NCBI GenBank assembly: GCA_041917695.1
Contig: JAYRXE010000037.1
Coordinates: 434,582 to 498,581, forward strand
Reading direction: 5' to 3'
Source: Minisyncoccota bacterium
GTDB lineage: Bacteria > Patescibacteriota > Minisyncoccia > UBA6257 > GWB1-50-10
Length of the DNA stretch: 64,000 bases
Positions 7,155 to 60,286 of this stretch are shown piece after piece. Made by a program: the position numbers and the translations under genes. How positions within the stretch are numbered: position 1 is the first letter of the stretch; each line of letters starts with the position of its first letter. The notes beneath the pieces are model-generated. The model was not told the origin of the DNA and searched no databases. It was given only the letters and a program-made list of their open reading frames with translations.

Positions 7155-7423
7155 AGACTTTTGTAAATTGGTTGTATATTTAGCTTAATTCCCCACTTAT
7201 CGTTTGTCAATATATATTTATCGTTAGTTAAAATGAGGCTTTTTCTCCCCTCTTGTTGATATTTTAAGAGAAAAGTGTATAAAAAATGAGTTGATCAGGC
7301 GTAGGTTAACAACCGAATAACGAGGCGCGCATGGGGCGCCTACAAGAGAGCTTTATAACTCAGAGACCTGACCCCAGCCTGCCGCAGGCAGACACGATTT
7401 TTTAACCGGCTTTTGCCGGTTTT

Positions 7424-11428: not shown

Positions 11429-11477
11429 ATTGCAAGCGGCGTTATCCCCCGTTGCTAAAAAGTGACTGGAGAAAAAT

Positions 11478-11500
11478 AAAAAGCCGCTATAGCGGCTTTA
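11478..11500 (-). terminator. Rho-independent terminator after the epimerase gene
   Basis: aaagccgctatagcggcttt forms a hairpin, with a minus-strand T-run after it. Confidence 0.55.
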
Positions 11501-11511
11501 AAAAGGAGAAT

Positions 11512-12243
11512 CTATTTCACGAGAAGCTCTATTTTCATATCAATGGCTTCATCGCGGACCAAATACAGGCCCTTGTCGGTATTAAACCACGCGGATTCAT
11601 CCAACACCGGCTCAACGCAGACATACTTCTCCGGTGCATCGTTCCAGAAGTATAATTGCGGGGATTCGTTCCTGAAAATCCCATCCACCCTAACATCTAC
11701 TTCCCCGTCTTCCATGCGCACCGTAAAGGAGTCGTGCTTTAGCGGTTCCATTTTAGCTGTATCGGAAAAAGACGCGTCGTAGGCATAATCAAGATCGCCC
11801 ACGCTGCAGACGGCAGCATTCCCCATAAAATAGGGATGGAACCCCACATTTAAAGGCGCGTAGCCGGGCGCCGCATCTTTCCGCTTGAAACCTATGGCAA
11901 GGGAAAGAAAGCCTTCTCTTACTTCATACGTCAGAACATATTCAATGTGCCAGGGGTATCCTCCCATTCCCGCATGGCAATGGAATGTTTTAAGAATAAG
12001 CGCTGTATCGCTTTCACTGACAACCTCCATAGGAAGCTGCCGGAGAAGCCCATGCTTATCCCCCATCGCCGACGAGCCAAACCAGGGTGCGCATATCGGC
12101 ATGCCTCCGCGCATCTTTCCCTTTTCATCCTTCTGATACGGATACAGTATGTCCCTGCCCTTAGCGGAGAACCTTTTCACGGTACCGCCGATTTTTGATA
12201 TCGCGGCTTCAGTCTCTCCGCAACGAATTTTGAATTCTTCCAA
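11512..12243 (-). CDS. Aldose 1-epimerase family protein (D-hexose-6-phosphate mutarotase/YeaD-like)
   Basis: GGMPICAPWFG matches the YeaD-type G(G)IP(I/V)CFPWFG motif, and HGLLRQLPMEV is also present. Size and secondary-structure pattern fit a galactose mutarotase-like fold. Confidence 0.65.
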   Translation of the reverse strand: MEEFKIRCGETEAAISKIGGTVKRFSAKGRDILYPYQKDEKGKMRGGMPICAPWFGSSAMGDKHGLLRQLPMEVVSESDTALILKTFHCHAGMGGYPWHIEYVLTYEVREGFLSLAIGFKRKDAAPGYAPLNVGFHPYFMGNAAVCSVGDLDYAYDASFSDTAKMEPLKHDSFTVRMEDGEVDVRVDGIFRNESPQLYFWNDAPEKYVCVEPVLDESAWFNTDKGLYLVRDEAIDMKIELLVK

Positions 12244-12292
12244 ATCCCCTACCTCGTTTTAATTTATTAAAATTGGTTATTTAACTAAAAAG

Positions 12293-12330
12293 AAAATACC
12301 ACGTATGTGTGGTATTAGTCAAGGTGCTCC
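12293..12330. repeat. Direct repeat copy A (38 bp), an att-like duplicate of the tRNA-Asn 3' flank
   Basis: aaaataccacgtatgtgtggtattagtcaaggtgctcc. It matches copy B at 12844-12881 (aaaataccacttgttagtggcattagtcaagatgctcc) at about 32 of 38 positions. Both contain a short hairpin. Confidence 0.6.
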
Positions 12331-12369
12331 ACGTCTTGGACGGTATTAGAACGAGGATTCATAAGTAAA

Positions 12370-12392
12370 AAGAGGGCATATGCCCTCTTTAT
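12370..12392 (-). terminator. Rho-independent terminator after the island ORF
   Basis: aaagagggcatatgccctcttt forms a hairpin, with a minus-strand T-run after it. Confidence 0.55.
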
Positions 12393-12787
12393 TAATGATT
12401 AGAATCAAAGAATCCTTCGTTAACAGATGTTACTAAGCAATGAACCTTTCCCTTTCCAACATCCGTACCGGTATAGCTCCCTACCCAAAACCCATCTGCA
12501 AACTTATCAAAAGAATAATAAATTGCTGAACGGTCTTTATAACATTTTCGGAAACTCATTTTTTTCTCTGAAATACGGAAATTGTAAATATCAGCTTCGC
12601 CGAATTTATCTTTAATGTAACCACACACAGTATGTTCCGGCTGAACGGTCACCATTCCTTGAAAAAAATGATACGGTAAACTATCTTCTCTTACTACACC
12701 AATTCCCGGCTTGATACCAATACCATATGAAAGAATCTCATTGAAATAGAGGCCTTGTAAGAGGTAAATATACTTATCTTCGCGCAA
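12392..12787 (-). CDS. Hypothetical protein on an AT-rich mini-island between direct repeats
   Basis: A 131-aa ORF whose composition is much more AT-rich than the surrounding genes. It has its own terminator and no recognisable family. Confidence 0.45.
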   Translation of the reverse strand: MREDKYIYLLQGLYFNEILSYGIGIKPGIGVVREDSLPYHFFQGMVTVQPEHTVCGYIKDKFGEADIYNFRISEKKMSFRKCYKDRSAIYYSFDKFADGFWVGSYTGTDVGKGKVHCLVTSVNEGFFDSNH

Positions 12788-12843
12788 TTAAAATACCTTC
12801 TTTCTTTATTTAAAAGTTATTAAAATAGTTTCAAGCTGAAAAC

Positions 12844-12881
12844 AAAATACCACTTGTTAGTGGCATTAGTCAAGATGCTCC
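12844..12881. repeat. Direct repeat copy B, overlapping the 3' end of tRNA-Asn
   Basis: See copy A. The final gctcc is the start of the tRNA-Asn acceptor 3' strand. Confidence 0.6.
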
Positions 12882-12949
12882 CCGGGTAGGATTCGAACCT
12901 ACAACCCGCTCCTTAACAGGGAGACGCTCTACCATTGAGCTACCGGGGA
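12878..12949 (-). tRNA. tRNA-Asn (anticodon GUU)
   Basis: The minus-strand cloverleaf has an acceptor TCCCCGG/CCGGGGA, D-arm GCTC-AATGGTA-GAGC, anticodon loop CTGTTAA and T-arm GTAGG-TTCGAAT-CCTAC. No encoded CCA. Confidence 0.85.
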
Positions 12950-13013: not shown

Positions 13014-13448
13014 TTAAGCTGAAACCGGCATTTCCTTCCCAATATACTCCATTATCTTTTTTATCACGGAGGCTGCCGAATCATCGGTTGCGCTTATCGG
13101 GAGAACGAAATCCACTTTTGGATGCACTTCCTTTTCCCTGTCTGCAAACTTCGGACCCAGCACCGAAACCCTTATCATCTTCGCATTCCGCTGGGGCTGA
13201 GATACAAATATAAGAAAATCGATGCCGATAAGATCCTCGCGGCTATAGCGGGGATATTTGAAATACGCATGTATCTTCTTATCCTGGCGCATCATGGCAA
13301 GGGCCATTTCCGCCATGTTTTCACGGAAAAAACCTATTTGATCATTAAAAGGGACACTCATCGCGGTCGCGTGCAATTTGGTGATTTCGTCTACCACGCG
13401 CTGGTAAGAGCTCCCATTACTGCCGTTCGTACCGTTGTTTTGATCCAT
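13014..13448 (-). CDS. Hypothetical protein
   Basis: A 144-aa ORF with its own terminator and no recognisable family. The N-terminus is Asn/Gly/Ser-rich. Confidence 0.45.
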   Translation of the reverse strand: MDQNNGTNGSNGSSYQRVVDEITKLHATAMSVPFNDQIGFFRENMAEMALAMMRQDKKIHAYFKYPRYSREDLIGIDFLIFVSQPQRNAKMIRVSVLGPKFADREKEVHPKVDFVLPISATDDSAASVIKKIMEYIGKEMPVSA

Positions 13449-13565: not shown

Positions 13566-13638
13566 GCTATACTGCTTTTTGAAACGCCCCTATAGCTCAG
13601 TTGGTAGAGCACCTGCCTTTTAAGCAGTGGGTCCTTGG
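13566..13638 (+). tRNA. tRNA-Lys (anticodon UUU)
   Basis: GCCCCTA-TA-GCTC-AGTTGGTA-GAGC-A-CCTGC-CTTTTAA-GCAGT-GGGTC-CTTGG-TTCGAAT-CCAAG-TGGGGGC-A. No CCA. A hairpin plus T-run terminator follows at about 13650-13678. Confidence 0.9.
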
Positions 13639-13925
13639 TTCGAATCCAAGTGGGGGCACTAAAACAAAAACACCCTATCCTATAGGGCGTTTTTGCTCGT
13701 GTGCGCACCAAAGAAGATTCGAATAGGAAAGAATTTCCTAAGATTACTAGGAAAACCCAGGGGTAATAAAGCTCATCTTGACAGGCGCCTCAAAAATTGA
13801 AATACTCGTAAACAGCTCGAAAACAATACCGGAAAGGAGGGTACCATCAAAGACATTCCGAAATAACACCTCAGAGAAATATTTAATTAACCTATTTTAA
13901 AAAATCCTAAAAACAGAGAAAACGT

Positions 13926-14129
13926 ATGGGATTGAATAAGAACTTGGCCGCAAAAAATAAGAAGCGGCAATTAAAACGTGCCGAAAGACAGGCATTGGAA
14001 AACGGCGGGAGAAATAGGCGCCGTGAAGACGAATTAAGGAACCAGTTAAATAACTCTCCGAGAGGTGAAGATTATGAGATGCAGGGAGGAGAAAGAGGAA
14101 GGGGGGCAGCGTACCAGGACCCCGACTAA
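13926..14129 (+). CDS. Small Arg/Lys-rich hypothetical protein (67 aa)
   Basis: The ORF lies in an AT-rich intergenic stretch between tRNA-Lys and nrdJ and is followed by a strong bidirectional terminator. It could be spurious. Confidence 0.3.
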   Translation: MGLNKNLAAKNKKRQLKRAERQALENGGRNRRREDELRNQLNNSPRGEDYEMQGGERGRGAAYQDPD

Positions 14130-17349: not shown

Positions 17350-17458
17350 TTGTATGCCGGCGTAGCCTACTTTCCCGGAGCCGAAGCCCTAGTATCATCG
17401 GATACGTACGCTTTCACTTCTCTGTTCGGAATGGGAAGAGGTGGTGCACGTACCTATA
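17350..17458 (-). rRNA. rrf: 5S ribosomal RNA
   Basis: The minus strand reads ...CACCACCTCTTCCCATTCCGAACAGAGAAGTGAAAGCGTACG...GATGATACTAGGG...GGGAAAGTAGGCTACGCCGGCAT, which is 5S consensus. Ends are approximate. Confidence 0.85.
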
Positions 17459-17557
17459 AAACACCGGCAAACAAGAATATTCATGTCGTCCATTTTGAAA
17501 TCAGCTTTTTGAGATAGAAATACTACCGCATATTTTGCATATGCGATTAAAAAAGAA

Positions 17558-20650
<3,093 letters not shown>

Positions 20651-20726
20651 GTATCAACTACGTGTAATCGCATACACTAAAAGTGCGATAGTATTTCTAC
20701 CTCAAAAAACTGATTTCTCATGTTTT

Positions 20727-20755
20727 TTGATATTCAGTTATCAAACGTCAGTCAA
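20727..20755 (-). promoter_or_regulatory. Candidate sigma-70-like promoter for the 23S-5S operon
   Basis: On the minus strand TTGACT, then 17 nt, then TATCAA, about 80 nt upstream of the 23S 5' end. Weak call. Confidence 0.25.
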
Positions 20756-20931
20756 AAAAAATCGCCTCAGGGGAGGCATCGTTGGCTTCGGGCGGACTTC
20801 AATCAGGCCGCTCGGGAAGCGCTATGCCTCATATGTTCGAATCTGATCATCCGTGGAAGTAATCCTAACGCGGACCGGGAGGGCTTGTCAACACCCTCAG
20901 GCGGCTCCCCATGTGGATTTTCCGGGGGTCC

Positions 20932-34509: not shown

Positions 34510-34674
34510 CATAAACATGAACCCACGAAAGATCGTGGGTTCATGCTTCCTACGGGAATCGAACGCGTATGGGGTCGGGAGCGGCGCAACGCTCCCGTGG
34601 AGGAGACGCTTAAGAACCGAGAGGTTCTTAAGGAGCGAAGCGACTTGAGATTTTCCCATATCCCGCACATAAAA
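34510..34674 (+). repeat. tRNA-associated structured repeat element, copy 1 (downstream of tRNA-Gly)
   Basis: Hairpin atgaacccacg-aaagat-cgtgggttcat. Core gggaatcgaacgcgtatggggtcgggagcggcgcaacgctcccgtggaggagacgcttaagaaccgagaggttcttaagg. It ends in a degenerate copy of the tRNA-Gly 3' end (gattttcccatatcccgcacataaaa versus the tRNA's gattcccgtatcccgcacataaa). Homologous copies sit at 43381-43596 and 60046-60214. Confidence 0.7.
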
Positions 34675-42380: not shown

Positions 42381-42410
42381 AGCCCACGAATGGGCTTAGA
42401 TGACAACGCA
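42381..42410 (-). terminator. Rho-independent terminator after the AT-rich ORF, immediately upstream of truncated prfB
   Basis: aagcccattcgtgggctt forms a hairpin, followed on the minus strand by ttttttatttttt. Confidence 0.55.
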
Positions 42411-42827
42411 CGCAAAATTGCCGAAAGCGCTTGGCATCAGAAGAATCCACAATGATGAATCCAGTTTATCTGCATGAGTGGCTAGGCAAAAATTTTTGAT
42501 ATCTTCCAGGACTGCATTCTTCCTTTCCTCAAGATTTATTTTTCTCTCGGGATAATCATGCGCGAGAACCAGGATTTCAATCACCTGGGAATGTACGTCC
42601 ATTTTTTTATGTTGCCGAGGCTTTACCTTGATATCTTCGGGCTTGAGGAAGCCTTCCTTTCCTTCTTCCGTTGAGACGGAAAGATGCTTGGAAAGCGTTA
42701 CGGGAAGAAAGCGTGCGAGTTCCTCTGCATCTCCCTTTGCTGATTCCTCGTAGAACATGAATACGTACGGCATTCGAACTCCTTTTTTAAATTTGAAATA
42801 CTGGCTATGTTTTATAGTAAATTCCAC
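42396..42827 (-). CDS. Hypothetical protein (AT-rich island)
   Basis: A 143-aa ORF with low-GC codon usage and its own terminator. No recognisable family, and no similarity to RF2 domain 1. Confidence 0.45.
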   Translation of the reverse strand: MEFTIKHSQYFKFKKGVRMPYVFMFYEESAKGDAEELARFLPVTLSKHLSVSTEEGKEGFLKPEDIKVKPRQHKKMDVHSQVIEILVLAHDYPERKINLEERKNAVLEDIKNFCLATHADKLDSSLWILLMPSAFGNFACVVI

Positions 42828-42862
42828 CAGGAGTCAATTATCCCTAAAAAGAAGAGCCGCAA

Positions 42863-43279
42863 CTATGCGGCTTTCAAAGTATATATCCTTACCTGCTTCA
42901 AATCCCACCAACGACCCTGCCCATTATCAAAAAGAATGCGAGGATCTTTGATCCCTAAATACCTCTCTAATTCCTCAAAGAACGCGGGAGATGAAATGAA
43001 GATGGATGAACTATTCTTATCAGAAAAAAGAGGGCTATCCGCATCTATCTTACCATCCCTGATTACATTAGGGTTCTCAAGCCATAAACCTAATCGATAG
43101 GAAAAAGAGCGCTCTTCTTTCTGGAAAGTAAAATAGAGTTCATCGACCTCGGGAAGAAGGACGGGAATCACTGTCTTAAACATGGACTGACTCATGCCTC
43201 CCCCTCCTCGAATAGAGGATAAAAAAACAGGACAATTATTGATGAGATAAATCACCGCTTCCTTGTGCGAAGTTATCAT
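42863..43279 (-). CDS. Hypothetical protein (AT-rich island)
   Basis: A 138-aa ORF with low-GC codon usage and its own terminator (agccgcaactatgcggct plus a minus-strand T-run at about 42851-42885). Confidence 0.45.
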   Translation of the reverse strand: MITSHKEAVIYLINNCPVFLSSIRGGGGMSQSMFKTVIPVLLPEVDELYFTFQKEERSFSYRLGLWLENPNVIRDGKIDADSPLFSDKNSSSIFISSPAFFEELERYLGIKDPRILFDNGQGRWWDLKQVRIYTLKAA

Positions 43280-43380
43280 TATGCTTCTCCAATAAGTTAT
43301 TAAATTTACTGGATATAAAATAAAATATTTATTAACTTATGTCAAAGTAATTATTCTCTACAATCGAACAATCCGCCGAA

Positions 43381-43596
43381 TGCGCCACTTCGGAATCTCA
43401 TGTCGCTTAAAATACCACTTCAGGAATCTCACAAAATTCCGTATCCACGGAATTTTTTTGAACCCCTCGGTTCCAATTATTCGCTTCGCGAATCCTACGT
43501 CTTGGAAAAACAAGTGTTTTTCCACCGCCTTTTCCCTTCGATTCCGAAATGCTACAGATGTAAAAATACCGTCATAAGACGGTATTTTTACATCTG
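43381..43596 (-). repeat. tRNA-associated structured repeat element, copy 2 (downstream of tRNA-Thr; diverged)
   Basis: A 17-bp perfect hairpin gatgtaaaaataccgtc-ataa-gacggtatttttacatc abuts the tRNA 3' end. It shares blocks with copy 1 (cggaatcgaag, cgaagcga, aaccgaggggttc). It ends in two degenerate copies of the tRNA-Thr 3' end (ccacttcaggaatctca and gccacttcggaatctcatgtcgc). Confidence 0.6.
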
Positions 43597-43669
43597 AGCC
43601 ACTTCCCGGAATCGAACCGGGGACCTTTGCTTTACGAAAGCACTGCTCTACCAGCTGAGCTAAAGTGGC
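43597..43669 (-). tRNA. tRNA-Thr (anticodon CGU)
   Basis: The minus strand reads GCCACTT-TA-GCTC-AGCTGGTA-GAGC-A-GTGCT-TTCGTAA-AGCAA-AGGTC-CCCGG-TTCGATT-CCGGG-AAGTGGC-T. Confidence 0.85.
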
Positions 43670-59639: not shown

Positions 59640-60008
59640 CTAATGATTCATAACGTACCAACTTTTGTACGCACGTAAATTTTTCTTTGAGAGTTCTTTT
59701 TCGGGGTAAGGACCTACTATTTTTGATGGCATAAGATTCATTTGGGATCTCTGTTGATCTCTAAATAATAGCTCAGGATCTGAATCGGACTGAGCTAATA
59801 CAATTACATTATTTATATTTGTAGCCCCTAAGCACTTATGCTTTTTTGCTTGATTGATTAATGCAGTGATATATTCTCGTATATCTTGTGATATCGTAGA
59901 TTTAAACAACTCCTCAAAAAATTTAAATTTAATTTTTTTCATTTCACTTTTTAAAATTATTAAAAAAATATCTGCAAGCAAAATACTACAAATCATAGCT
60001 TCTGTCAA
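59640..60008 (-). CDS. Hypothetical protein (AT-rich)
   Basis: A 122-aa ORF whose sequence is markedly AT-rich. It lies between the secreted repeat peptide and the tRNA-Glu-associated repeat. Confidence 0.4.
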   Translation of the reverse strand: MTEAMICSILLADIFLIILKSEMKKIKFKFFEELFKSTISQDIREYITALINQAKKHKCLGATNINNVIVLAQSDSDPELLFRDQQRSQMNLMPSKIVGPYPEKELSKKNLRAYKSWYVMNH

Positions 60009-60045: not shown

Positions 60046-60214
60046 ATTTAGCCCACGGGAAATCTCACGTCGTCACTCCGCTCCTCCTTAAGAACCCACG
60101 GTTCTTAAAAGATTTCCTCCACGGGAGCGTTGCGCCGCTCCCGACCCCATACGCTTCGATTCCCTGAGCACCCACACTAAAACAACTCCTTGAAAGGAGT
60201 TGTTTTAGTGTAAG
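60046..60214 (-). repeat. tRNA-associated structured repeat element, copy 3 (downstream of tRNA-Glu)
   Basis: The reverse complement of 60086-60164 is gggaatcgaagcgtatggggtcgggagcggcgcaacgctcccgtggaggaaatcttttaagaaccgtgggttcttaagg. This is nearly identical to copy 1 and includes a perfect 38-nt run. The element ends in a degenerate copy of the tRNA-Glu 3' end (agcccacgggaaatctcacgtcg). Adjacent to the tRNA is a 15-bp-stem hairpin aaaacaactcc-ttgaaa-ggagttgtttt. Confidence 0.7.
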
Positions 60215-60286
60215 TAGCCCCACGGGGAATCGAACCCCGATTTTTGCCGTGAGAGGGCAATGTCCTAGCCGTTAGACGATGAGGCC
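60215..60286 (-). tRNA. tRNA-Glu (anticodon CUC)
   Basis: The minus strand reads GGCCTCA-TC-GTCT-AACGGCTA-GGAC-A-TTGCC-CTCTCAC-GGCAA-AAAT-CGGGG-TTCGATT-CCCCG-TGGGGCT-A. The acceptor stem has two G-U pairs. The overall sequence is close to canonical tRNA-Glu. Confidence 0.8.

Follow-up and report, generated by a model that had tools for sequence, protein, structure and literature searches.

The window analyzed here, a 64,000-nucleotide stretch of a Minisyncoccota bacterium (contig JAYRXE010000037.1, positions 434,582 to 498,581, forward strand), contains a tRNA-Asn gene beside which two copies of a 38-nt direct repeat enclose a small low-GC gene. On balance, we favor the interpretation that this locus is the unit nearest the tRNA in an accessory array of two cassettes at a hotspot formed by the tRNA-Asn 3' end, where integrase-less cassettes accrete at tRNA 3' ends and are mobilized in trans. 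In the best-supported model, the 38-nt repeat would represent the heads of two consecutive units together with a stub left by the displaced tRNA end. Judged by its sequence features, it is mainly a predicted cassette head, that is, a stop-then-start transcription signal, and for the most part no attachment (att) core. The features of the locus are as follows.

12877-12949, minus strand: tRNA-Asn, anticodon GTT (ARAGORN; Rfam tRNA, 70.2 bits); its 3' end at 12877 is the left limit of the variable segment
12836-12873, minus strand: cassette head copy A, next to the tRNA, with TTGACT (12873-12868), a 9-bp hairpin (12867-12846), TATTTT (12849-12844), a U-tract, and CAG (nhmmer E = 1.9e-11)
12788-12835, minus strand: A/T-rich 5' leader of the 131-aa gene, with a shared ATTTTAATAA box and a putative GAAGG ribosome-binding site, read from the sequence
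12392-12787, minus strand: cargo 1, a 131-aa open reading frame (ORF) with a TTG start (GC, 36.1%)
12369-12390, minus strand: predicted intrinsic terminator of cargo 1, a 9-bp stem with five GC pairs and then a T-run
12323-12366, minus strand: junction between the two cassettes, with decayed pieces resembling the tRNA-Asn 3' end, GAATCCT (12360-12354) and GTCCAAGACGTGGAGCA (12341-12325), read from the sequence
12285-12322, minus strand: cassette head copy B, with TTGACT (12322-12317), an 8-bp hairpin (12316-12295), TATTTT, a U-tract, and TAG (nhmmer E = 4.2e-12)
11512-12243, minus strand: cargo 2, a 243-aa aldose-1-epimerase-like gene (Pfam PF01263, E = 5e-13; GC, 50%)
11480-11499, minus strand: predicted intrinsic terminator of cargo 2 (terminator scan)
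11437-11479, minus strand: right-hand junction; from 11436, which lies 45 nt upstream of the start of csoR, the DNA is again homologous to the sister genome

The 38-nt pattern had exactly two matches in the 64 kb, at 12293-12330 and 12844-12881, and a chance origin was rejected, as no match was expected in 100 shuffles. In a self-comparison of the window, the similarity reached 79% identity across 56 nt (12285-12340 versus 12836-12891) and, with a 2-nt indel, extended to 12261-12278 and 12814-12831, for about 80 nt overall. The tRNA-Asn gene lies on the minus strand with its 3' end at 12877; therefore, the copy at 12844-12881 takes in the final 5 nt of the tRNA (15 nt if the match at 79% identity is used) and then DNA downstream of it, and the order on the minus strand is tRNA-Asn, copy A, the 131-aa ORF, its terminator, copy B, and the next ORF. 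The initial annotation had described a repeat occurring twice, one copy overlapping the 3' end of tRNA-Asn, and a low-GC 131-aa ORF with its own terminator between the copies, and all of this was borne out. Its view of the repeat as att-like was not: approximately 32 of the 38 nt belong to a terminator/promoter module that is present at 57 unrelated loci. Read on the minus strand, both copies have the form GGAGCA-NN-TTGACTAAT(G/A)CCAC-N6-GTGGTATTTT-(T-rich)-YAG, in which the clear match to the tRNA end comprises the first 6 nt only (GGAGCA).

The limits of the variable DNA were given by a sister genome, represented by the contigs L002 to L007, which carry the relative of a 144-aa protein encoded next to tRNA-Asn. 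These contigs are syntenic with the window over RNR, tRNA-Lys, the 144-aa gene, tRNA-Asn, a variable stretch, csoR, and copA, and the flanking DNA is 96.3% identical on the left and 93.9% identical on the right (94 to 98% overall). The homology ended at 12876 and resumed at 11436; the tRNA-Asn gene was intact at this variable site, and the variable DNA began at the base right after it. The variable segment (12875-11437) was 1,439 bp long in the window and held two genes, the 131-aa gene and the 243-aa epimerase-like gene, whereas the same interval in the sister was 2,097 bp long and held three others (a HAD hydrolase gene, a 62-aa gene, and a 184- to 198-aa gene); the epimerase-like gene was absent from the corresponding sister position. 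The homology breaks at 12876 and 11436 therefore delimit an island of two cassettes, the second headed by copy B, in place of the one-gene island originally described. The proposed comparison with related genomes thus found a site occupied by different genes, i.e., a polymorphism in content with its breakpoint at the tRNA. Of the claimed footprint of integration into a tRNA 3' end, the horizontally variable insertion point exactly at the 3' end of tRNA-Asn stands, and the 38-nt repeat as att core mostly does not.

Duplicated tRNA ends were present in the sister. Ahead of its 184- to 198-aa gene stood ACCCGGGGAGCA, which corresponds to the final 12 nt of tRNA-Asn, followed 3 nt later by the motif TTGACAAATACCAC-N6-GTGGTATT; its 62-aa gene was preceded by a poorer tRNA-Asn remnant and then by the same motif; and additional copies of the tRNA-Asn 3' end, matching at 12 to 15 of 17 positions, each stood 1 to 3 nt ahead of a head. 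Furthermore, L002 contained two perfect 17-mers (AATCCTACCCGGGGAGC) 165 nt apart, and L003, from the same population, contained one. The 17-mers form both bounds of a 165-bp gene-free unit that follows tRNA-Asn directly in L002, contains no head, and is missing from L003, L005, and L009. The idea of integration at the tRNA was rescued by these perfect 17-nt duplications of the tRNA-Asn 3' end, together with three other tRNAs of the window whose displaced 3' ends share a start in the T-loop.

Two assemblies deviated at the tRNA-Asn site. In L005 (7738-8352), the HAD cassette ends after about 100 codons and runs into unrelated sequence, which is either a third structural variant at this site or an assembly chimera. 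In SRR26835159, a second sample of the window's own strain (end of L009 and start of L075), the assembly breaks no more than about 15 nt from the start codon of the 131-aa gene, which could reflect population heterogeneity at the cassette or just low coverage.

Both copies of the repeat were flagged twice in the scan, as terminator-like (an 8- to 9-bp stem and a T-run) and as promoter-like (TTGACT, 18 nt, and TATTTT, with TG upstream), the promoter-like layout matching the sigma-70-type consensus at 9 of 12 positions in each. The hairpin of copy A folded with −11.4 kcal/mol (z = −2.7) and that of copy B with −9.8 kcal/mol (z = −3.8); free energies across heads were −8 to −11 kcal/mol. The consensus head consists of a TTGACW-N18-(TGG)TATTTT promoter that overlaps a hairpin and U-tract. 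Among 48 distinct instances, 24 had GNRA tetraloops (chance expectation of approximately 3%, by our own estimate), G-U wobble variants occurred in the stems, and each of the 8 positions after the stem was T in 39 to 81% of instances (at least 60% at seven of the eight), followed by AG. The GNRA loops, the wobbles, and the U-rich tract speak for a hairpin that acts as RNA, i.e., for a terminator. Heads with different stems, which were found by position alone at tRNA-Glu, at tRNA-Thr, and at a second variable site, kept TTGACA-N17-TATTYT, and TTGACA-N17/18-TATTYT was retained even where the stem sequence differed; the search pattern for heads demanded TTGAC plus the stem, so that the conservation of these parts among its matches is partly by construction. 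No terminator other than copy A was found for tRNA-Asn, and copy A probably both terminates transcription of the tRNA and initiates that of the 131-aa gene; copy B is predicted to insulate and drive the epimerase-like gene. The ATTTTAATAA leader box of the copy A unit was also read behind other heads. In Rfam, neither the head nor the junctions matched a known RNA family or gave a partial tRNA call, and a literature search for the motif strings found no paper.

The head was not confined to this genome. The pattern TTGACWAATRCCAC-N6-GTGGTATT occurred at 57 loci in all, 15 in species-representative genomes and 42 in metagenomes, with <1 match expected according to our own estimate from the information content of the motif. 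Metagenome-assembled genomes of Patescibacteria accounted for 14 of the 15 genome loci and included Saccharibacteria, Paceibacterota, Parcubacteria, Microgenomatus, Sungiibacteriota, and Minisyncoccia; viral contigs had no match to the head or to the E element described below. For nine of the 50 distinct heads, a complete tRNA in the same orientation ended no more than 60 nt upstream (tRNA-Met in five cases, tRNA-Asn in two, and tRNA-Glu and tRNA-Ser), compared with 0.27% of random oriented positions, and other heads followed recognizable tRNA 3' remnants. The genes behind the heads were small (62 to 371 aa) and nearly all mutually unrelated; 40 distinct cargo proteins yielded only three small similarity clusters, and no Pfam family was found in 40 of the 44 cargo ORFs. 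In one case, the same head and 147-aa gene (92% DNA identity) stood directly after tRNA-Met in L056 (1437-2076) and after a tRNA-Met 3' remnant in L019 (2419-1857, minus strand), with unrelated DNA upstream of the cassette; these two contexts are exactly what tandem accretion predicts.

The segment adjoining the 147-aa cassette is inverted between L056 and L019. In the related Paceibacterota loci L013 (7270-6700) and L015 (7050-6100), the head and flanks are common to both, and in one of them an additional 127-aa lipoprotein-like gene that lacks its own head is inserted between the head and a 140-aa gene.

Similar arrangements were found at other tRNAs of the window and at a second site in the sister population, listed here together with the copies of E, a short noncoding element.

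tRNA-Glu unit, minus strand: tRNA, 60214-60286; displaced 3' end, 60064-60049; head, 60008-59980; ORF, 59640-60008
tRNA-Thr units (42396-43345), minus strand: tRNA, 43596-43669; 138-aa ORF, 42863-43279; 143-aa ORF, 42396-42827
E element copies: window 34553-34669 (plus strand), 60049-60165 (minus strand), and 43381-43547 (minus strand); L002 5825-5943
Second variable site: window 7250-7370; L003 9483-9983; L002 12112-12607; different one-gene cassettes in the two sister contigs (101 aa and 99 aa)

For tRNA-Gly, tRNA-Thr, and tRNA-Glu, the displaced 3' ends scored higher than every one of 200 shuffles, and each starts at the GATT of the T-loop. Such a breakpoint, common to four different tRNAs, is the trace expected from a site-specific recombinase acting on the T-arm. 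At tRNA-Glu and tRNA-Thr, the order was the tRNA, a terminator, E (approximately 115 to 165 nt), the displaced 3' end of that tRNA, a TTGACA-N17-TATTTT head with a ATTTTAATAA leader, an ORF, and a terminator. The ORF downstream of tRNA-Glu had the lowest GC content in the window (29.5%); its likely ATG at 59942 would give about 100 aa, and a further remnant and terminator follow it at approximately 59560-59490. Both ORFs downstream of tRNA-Thr were also low in GC, and two displaced tRNA-Thr 3' ends (43428-43415 and 43397-43381) were present; the first cassette had a TTGACA-N17-TATTTT head (43345-43317), and the second had TTGACT-N17-TATAAA. At tRNA-Gly there was a gene-free unit only, flanked by TTCCCGTATCCCGCACA and TTCCCATATCCCGCACA. 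The E copies follow the terminators of tRNA-Gly, tRNA-Glu, and tRNA-Thr and, in the sister strain only, tRNA-Asn. They are homologous (nhmmer E = 7e-13 to 5e-24) and also match the 165-bp unit of the sister, and each terminates in a displaced copy of the respective tRNA's own 3' end. Two hairpins in E keep their pairing through double changes, and the closing stem uses an inverted T-loop copy (GGAWTCGAA); E may be a mini-element made up of the attP arm only or a structured RNA.

The second variable site lies 6 kb from tRNA-Asn, past the cop operon and between cupredoxin and DUF2975 genes. Copies of the tRNA-Asn 3' end, matching at 13 and 15 of 17 positions, were followed there by a head with a different, compensated stem (TAGCATA/TATGCTA), and the window had no cassette at this site and contained 121 bp of unrelated noncoding DNA.

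After the terminator of tRNA-Lys (13586-13659), at 13700-13800 on the plus strand, a degenerate E-like start (GATTCGAATAGGAAAG) and a TTGACA box stand upstream of a 67-aa ORF (13926-14129). This region, possibly a further old unit, is conserved in the sister genome.

The 131-aa ORF is compositionally foreign. Its GC content (36.1%) and GC content at third codon positions (GC3; 30.3%) compared with means of 52.3 ± 5.8% and 62.1 ± 10.2% for the ORFs of the window (z = −2.8 and −3.1, respectively), which made it the second lowest among 56; the atypical composition holds for this ORF and does not include the epimerase-like gene. The initial annotation had called for this calculation and had named two findings that would speak against integration, a repeat common to many unrelated loci and a native composition of the ORF; the head module did prove to be present at 57 unrelated loci, and native composition was not found. 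Neither the 131-aa nor the 144-aa protein had a match above threshold in Pfam, NCBIfam, or PADLOC. For the 131-aa protein, first described as having no recognizable family, this agrees with the description, yet an exhaustive HMMER search recovered a widespread uncharacterized family of 323 relatives (68 at E ≤ 1e-10), all of approximately 125 to 160 aa; a word-indexed protein search had returned only the protein itself and was misleading in comparison. In the family alignment, G56, K81, Y83, and G103 were invariant. AlphaFold (AF2 model) predicted an all-beta barrel of 10 strands, with a predicted local distance difference test score (pLDDT) of 93, and neither a PDB profile search nor a Foldseek search with the model gave a convincing match (template modeling [TM] score of ≤0.5). 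The relatives in other genomes (L025 to L031) occur in ordinary contexts without the head, and the protein family is therefore not cassette specific; the protein was absent from the phage and plasmid records searched. The 144-aa ORF (13014-13448), which had been taken for a second orphan, lies on the 5' side of tRNA-Asn and has one relative, syntenic in the sister genome and 86% identical in amino acids; it is evidently a conserved flank and no cargo.

Near the 131-aa homolog in L025 (4400-6180), a different intergenic repeat of about 55 nt (AAATTTCGCCTAACGTATCCGAGTATGCGAAG...) recurs before three small genes. That region adjoins a tRNA cluster and lies 1.8 kb from a 273-aa tyrosine recombinase.

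Tyrosine recombinases were searched for with a XerD probe, for which the integrase annotated in L025 served as a positive control, and then with a profile of XerD and two recombinases of the candidate phyla radiation (CPR); the recombinase search covered L002 to L024 and L032 to L073. Apart from a single Xer-like gene in L065, 2.6 kb from a head, neither the window nor the sister contigs nor the approximately 335 kb around some 50 heads yielded a tyrosine or serine recombinase; for serine recombinases, this means no match to a Hin probe that had no positive control. In addition, no integrase was among the top 25 PHROG families listed. The absence of an integrase, stated in the initial annotation, was thus upheld, and the integrase beside its own att site that defines tyrosine-integrase islands was lacking here.

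For the manner in which such an array would form and be expressed, we infer the following from the anatomy of the units. Each cassette consists of a displaced and decaying tRNA 3' end, a head of about 40 nt, an A/T-rich leader with a putative ribosome-binding site, one ORF, and a GC-rich terminator of its own. The RNA hairpin and U-tract of the head would stop upstream transcription (in copy A, that of the tRNA), and the overlapping TTGACW-N18-(TGG)TATTTT promoter would restart transcription just beyond the hairpin. Cassettes would enter one by one through site-specific recombination in the T-loop or 3' end of the tRNA, each newcomer bringing a new tRNA 3' end and terminator and displacing the previous 3' end, and with it the older cassettes, in the downstream direction (tandem accretion), and in gene-carrying units, the terminator of the tRNA would be fused to the promoter of the cargo. 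The recombinase would be encoded outside the cassettes and would act in trans. A bolder and doubtful extension is that Patescibacteria might possess an integron-analogous, tRNA-anchored form of gene capture in which integrase-less single-gene cassettes and gene-free units of about 165 bp are inserted and excised at T-loops by a trans-acting recombinase, a portable head making the captured gene immediately expressed as well as insulated; if true, such capture might rank among the main routes by which genes enter and leave the reduced genomes of Patescibacteria.

Several observations weigh against accretion of mobile cassettes at tRNA 3' ends. Among the direct repeats of the tRNA 3' segment, the perfect 17-mers and the 12- to 15-of-17 copies are in the sister; the tRNA-derived part of the distal repeat in the window is weak (11/15 to 12/17) and alone did not score above shuffles, and the junction pieces, which are in register with the tRNA 3' end within the 56-nt repeat, were not significant by themselves in the shuffle test. 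No att-like remnant was recognizable at the right junction (11437-11479), the GC content of the epimerase-like gene is near the native level, many heads elsewhere have no adjoining tRNA or remnant, and a Xer-like gene does occur in L065. The different genes held by two contigs at the second site, 6 kb away, are not predicted by simple proximal accretion. Moreover, constraint, and not common descent, could account for part of the conservation of the head, with the right stem arm serving as an extended −10 element and the left arm pairing with it.

The cassettes might instead have been swapped by homologous recombination after DNA uptake, the tRNA, the heads, the leaders, and the csoR-side flanks acting as portable homology arms without any site-specific recombinase. 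Saccharibacteria are naturally competent, and this explanation, which we consider unlikely though worth keeping in view, fits the lack of recombinases near heads (save the gene in L065), the greater similarity of heads, loops included, within than between genomes, as gene conversion would give, and the 94 to 98% identity of the flanks to the sister. Direct duplications of tRNA 3' ends are, however, not created by homologous recombination, and the T-loop breakpoint common to four different tRNAs and the 165-bp unit with its perfect 17-mer bounds would go unexplained. Another candidate, to which we assign a rather low probability, is that larger classical islands or prophages at tRNA-Asn decayed and that deletions left single genes and promoters, so that the cassettes were never individually mobile. 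Old integrations typically leave tRNA 3' remnants and tandem debris, as in tycheposon islands (10.1101/2020.12.28.424599), and the right boundary in the window has no att remnant; such decay is difficult to reconcile with approximately 50 heads and 44 cargo genes that repeat the same compact one-gene layout with no adjoining integrase fragments or phage genes, with the absence of matches in viral contigs and in phage or plasmid records, and with close relatives that differ by whole cassettes with sharp boundaries. Homologous exchange and island decay are both possible explanations that account for the shared T-loop breakpoints and the perfect 17-mers less well than accretion does.

A further reading, in which recombination takes place at the hairpin itself, as a palindromic Xer/dif-like site (arms of 9 to 10 nt and a center of 4 to 6 nt) or a small folded attC-like site, and the tRNA ends are incidental, appears very unlikely. 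The hairpin arms are perfectly palindromic around a short center, copies within one genome often have the same center (L018 and L013/L015), and the Xer-like gene in L065 is 2.6 kb from a head, but the 24 GNRA loops and the G-U wobbles point to an RNA hairpin, the centers of the two window copies differ (ACATAC versus TAACAA), the 165-bp indel of the sister is bounded by tRNA 17-mers and has no head, the hairpin stands 5' of the ORFs whereas attC stands 3', and the breakpoints of cassette polymorphisms map outside the hairpin in the cases seen. The absence of any mobility, i.e., local duplication of a native tRNA terminator/promoter beside two native ORFs, would suit the native-like GC content of the epimerase-like gene and the rarer TTGACT variant carried by both copies. 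It is highly improbable and was rejected, being contradicted by the sister comparison: the sister lacks both genes at the site and has others instead. The GC3 of the 131-aa ORF (z = −3.1) and the same head in many other lineages likewise argue against it.

Accretion at tRNA 3' ends has counterparts among known systems. The tycheposon islands of Prochlorococcus are tRNA-targeted tandem integrations separated by partial tRNA copies, in which older integrations are pushed inward and degenerate remnants are scattered (10.1101/2020.12.28.424599). The cassettes resemble such tRNA-targeting islands in their insertion at a tRNA 3' end, their partial-tRNA separators, and contents that vary among close relatives. 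They differ in being single genes of 0.5 to 0.9 kb or gene-free units of 165 bp, in having no integrase, replication, or phage-like module near about 50 instances (apart from the Xer-like gene in L065), and in that each gene unit opens with a terminator/promoter head conserved across several Patescibacteria lineages. Tycheposons are characterized by a tyrosine recombinase and a replication or packaging module; no recombinase was found here, and what the two have in common is limited to the tRNA location and the partial-tRNA separators. Integrase-less cis-mobilizable elements (CIMEs) of streptococcal integrative and conjugative elements are a comparable class.

With integron arrays, the locus shares small, mostly single-gene cassettes of largely unknown function at a fixed point, individually without a recombinase and with a recurring hairpin element. 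Unlike integrons, it is anchored at a tRNA 3' end instead of attI, its cassettes carry their own promoter, and no intI was found; unlike attC, the hairpin is 22 to 28 nt long with a short perfect stem, a GNRA loop, and a U-tract, overlaps a promoter, stands 5' of the ORF, and has no R''/L''-L'/R' layout. An integron was therefore rejected as an explanation, there being no intI (no tyrosine recombinase in the window) and no attC-like layout. A Pfam match to an integron cassette protein was below threshold (E = 0.045; 14.4 bits versus a cutoff of 27). As for a Xer/dif-like site, the palindrome is present, but its centers vary and resemble RNA tetraloops. Putative mobile promoters, or promoter reuse, have been described (PMC3575422), and the head resembles them in that a near-identical promoter stands upstream of nonhomologous genes within and across genomes; it differs in that an upstream-facing terminator hairpin is joined to the promoter, which is found preferentially after tRNA 3' ends and remnants. 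The stem, the GNRA tetraloop, and the U-tract are those of a predicted intrinsic (Rho-independent) terminator, whereas the stem is unusual in being A/U rich, with only three GC pairs, and in having a right arm that doubles as an extended −10 element.

The gain and loss of accessory genes in ultrasmall, host-dependent bacteria with reduced genomes are poorly understood. This locus and the 57 related loci point to a recurring architecture: a tRNA 3' landing site, a conserved head, one small and usually unknown gene, and no on-board recombinase. If the cassettes are mobile, they would constitute a new minimal class of integrative cargo, and the head would provide a sequence handle with which strain-variable genes could be located in metagenomic data. 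The head may also be of practical use as a compact signal for insulated expression in organisms with few genetic tools.

With regard to the surroundings of the tRNA-Asn site, the ORF-free stretch of the window at approximately 17350-20900 is collinear with L002 1-1302, where Rfam finds the 3' part of a 23S rRNA and a 5S rRNA; the site therefore lies about 4.4 kb from an rRNA operon, as judged from the rRNA that Rfam recognizes in L002.

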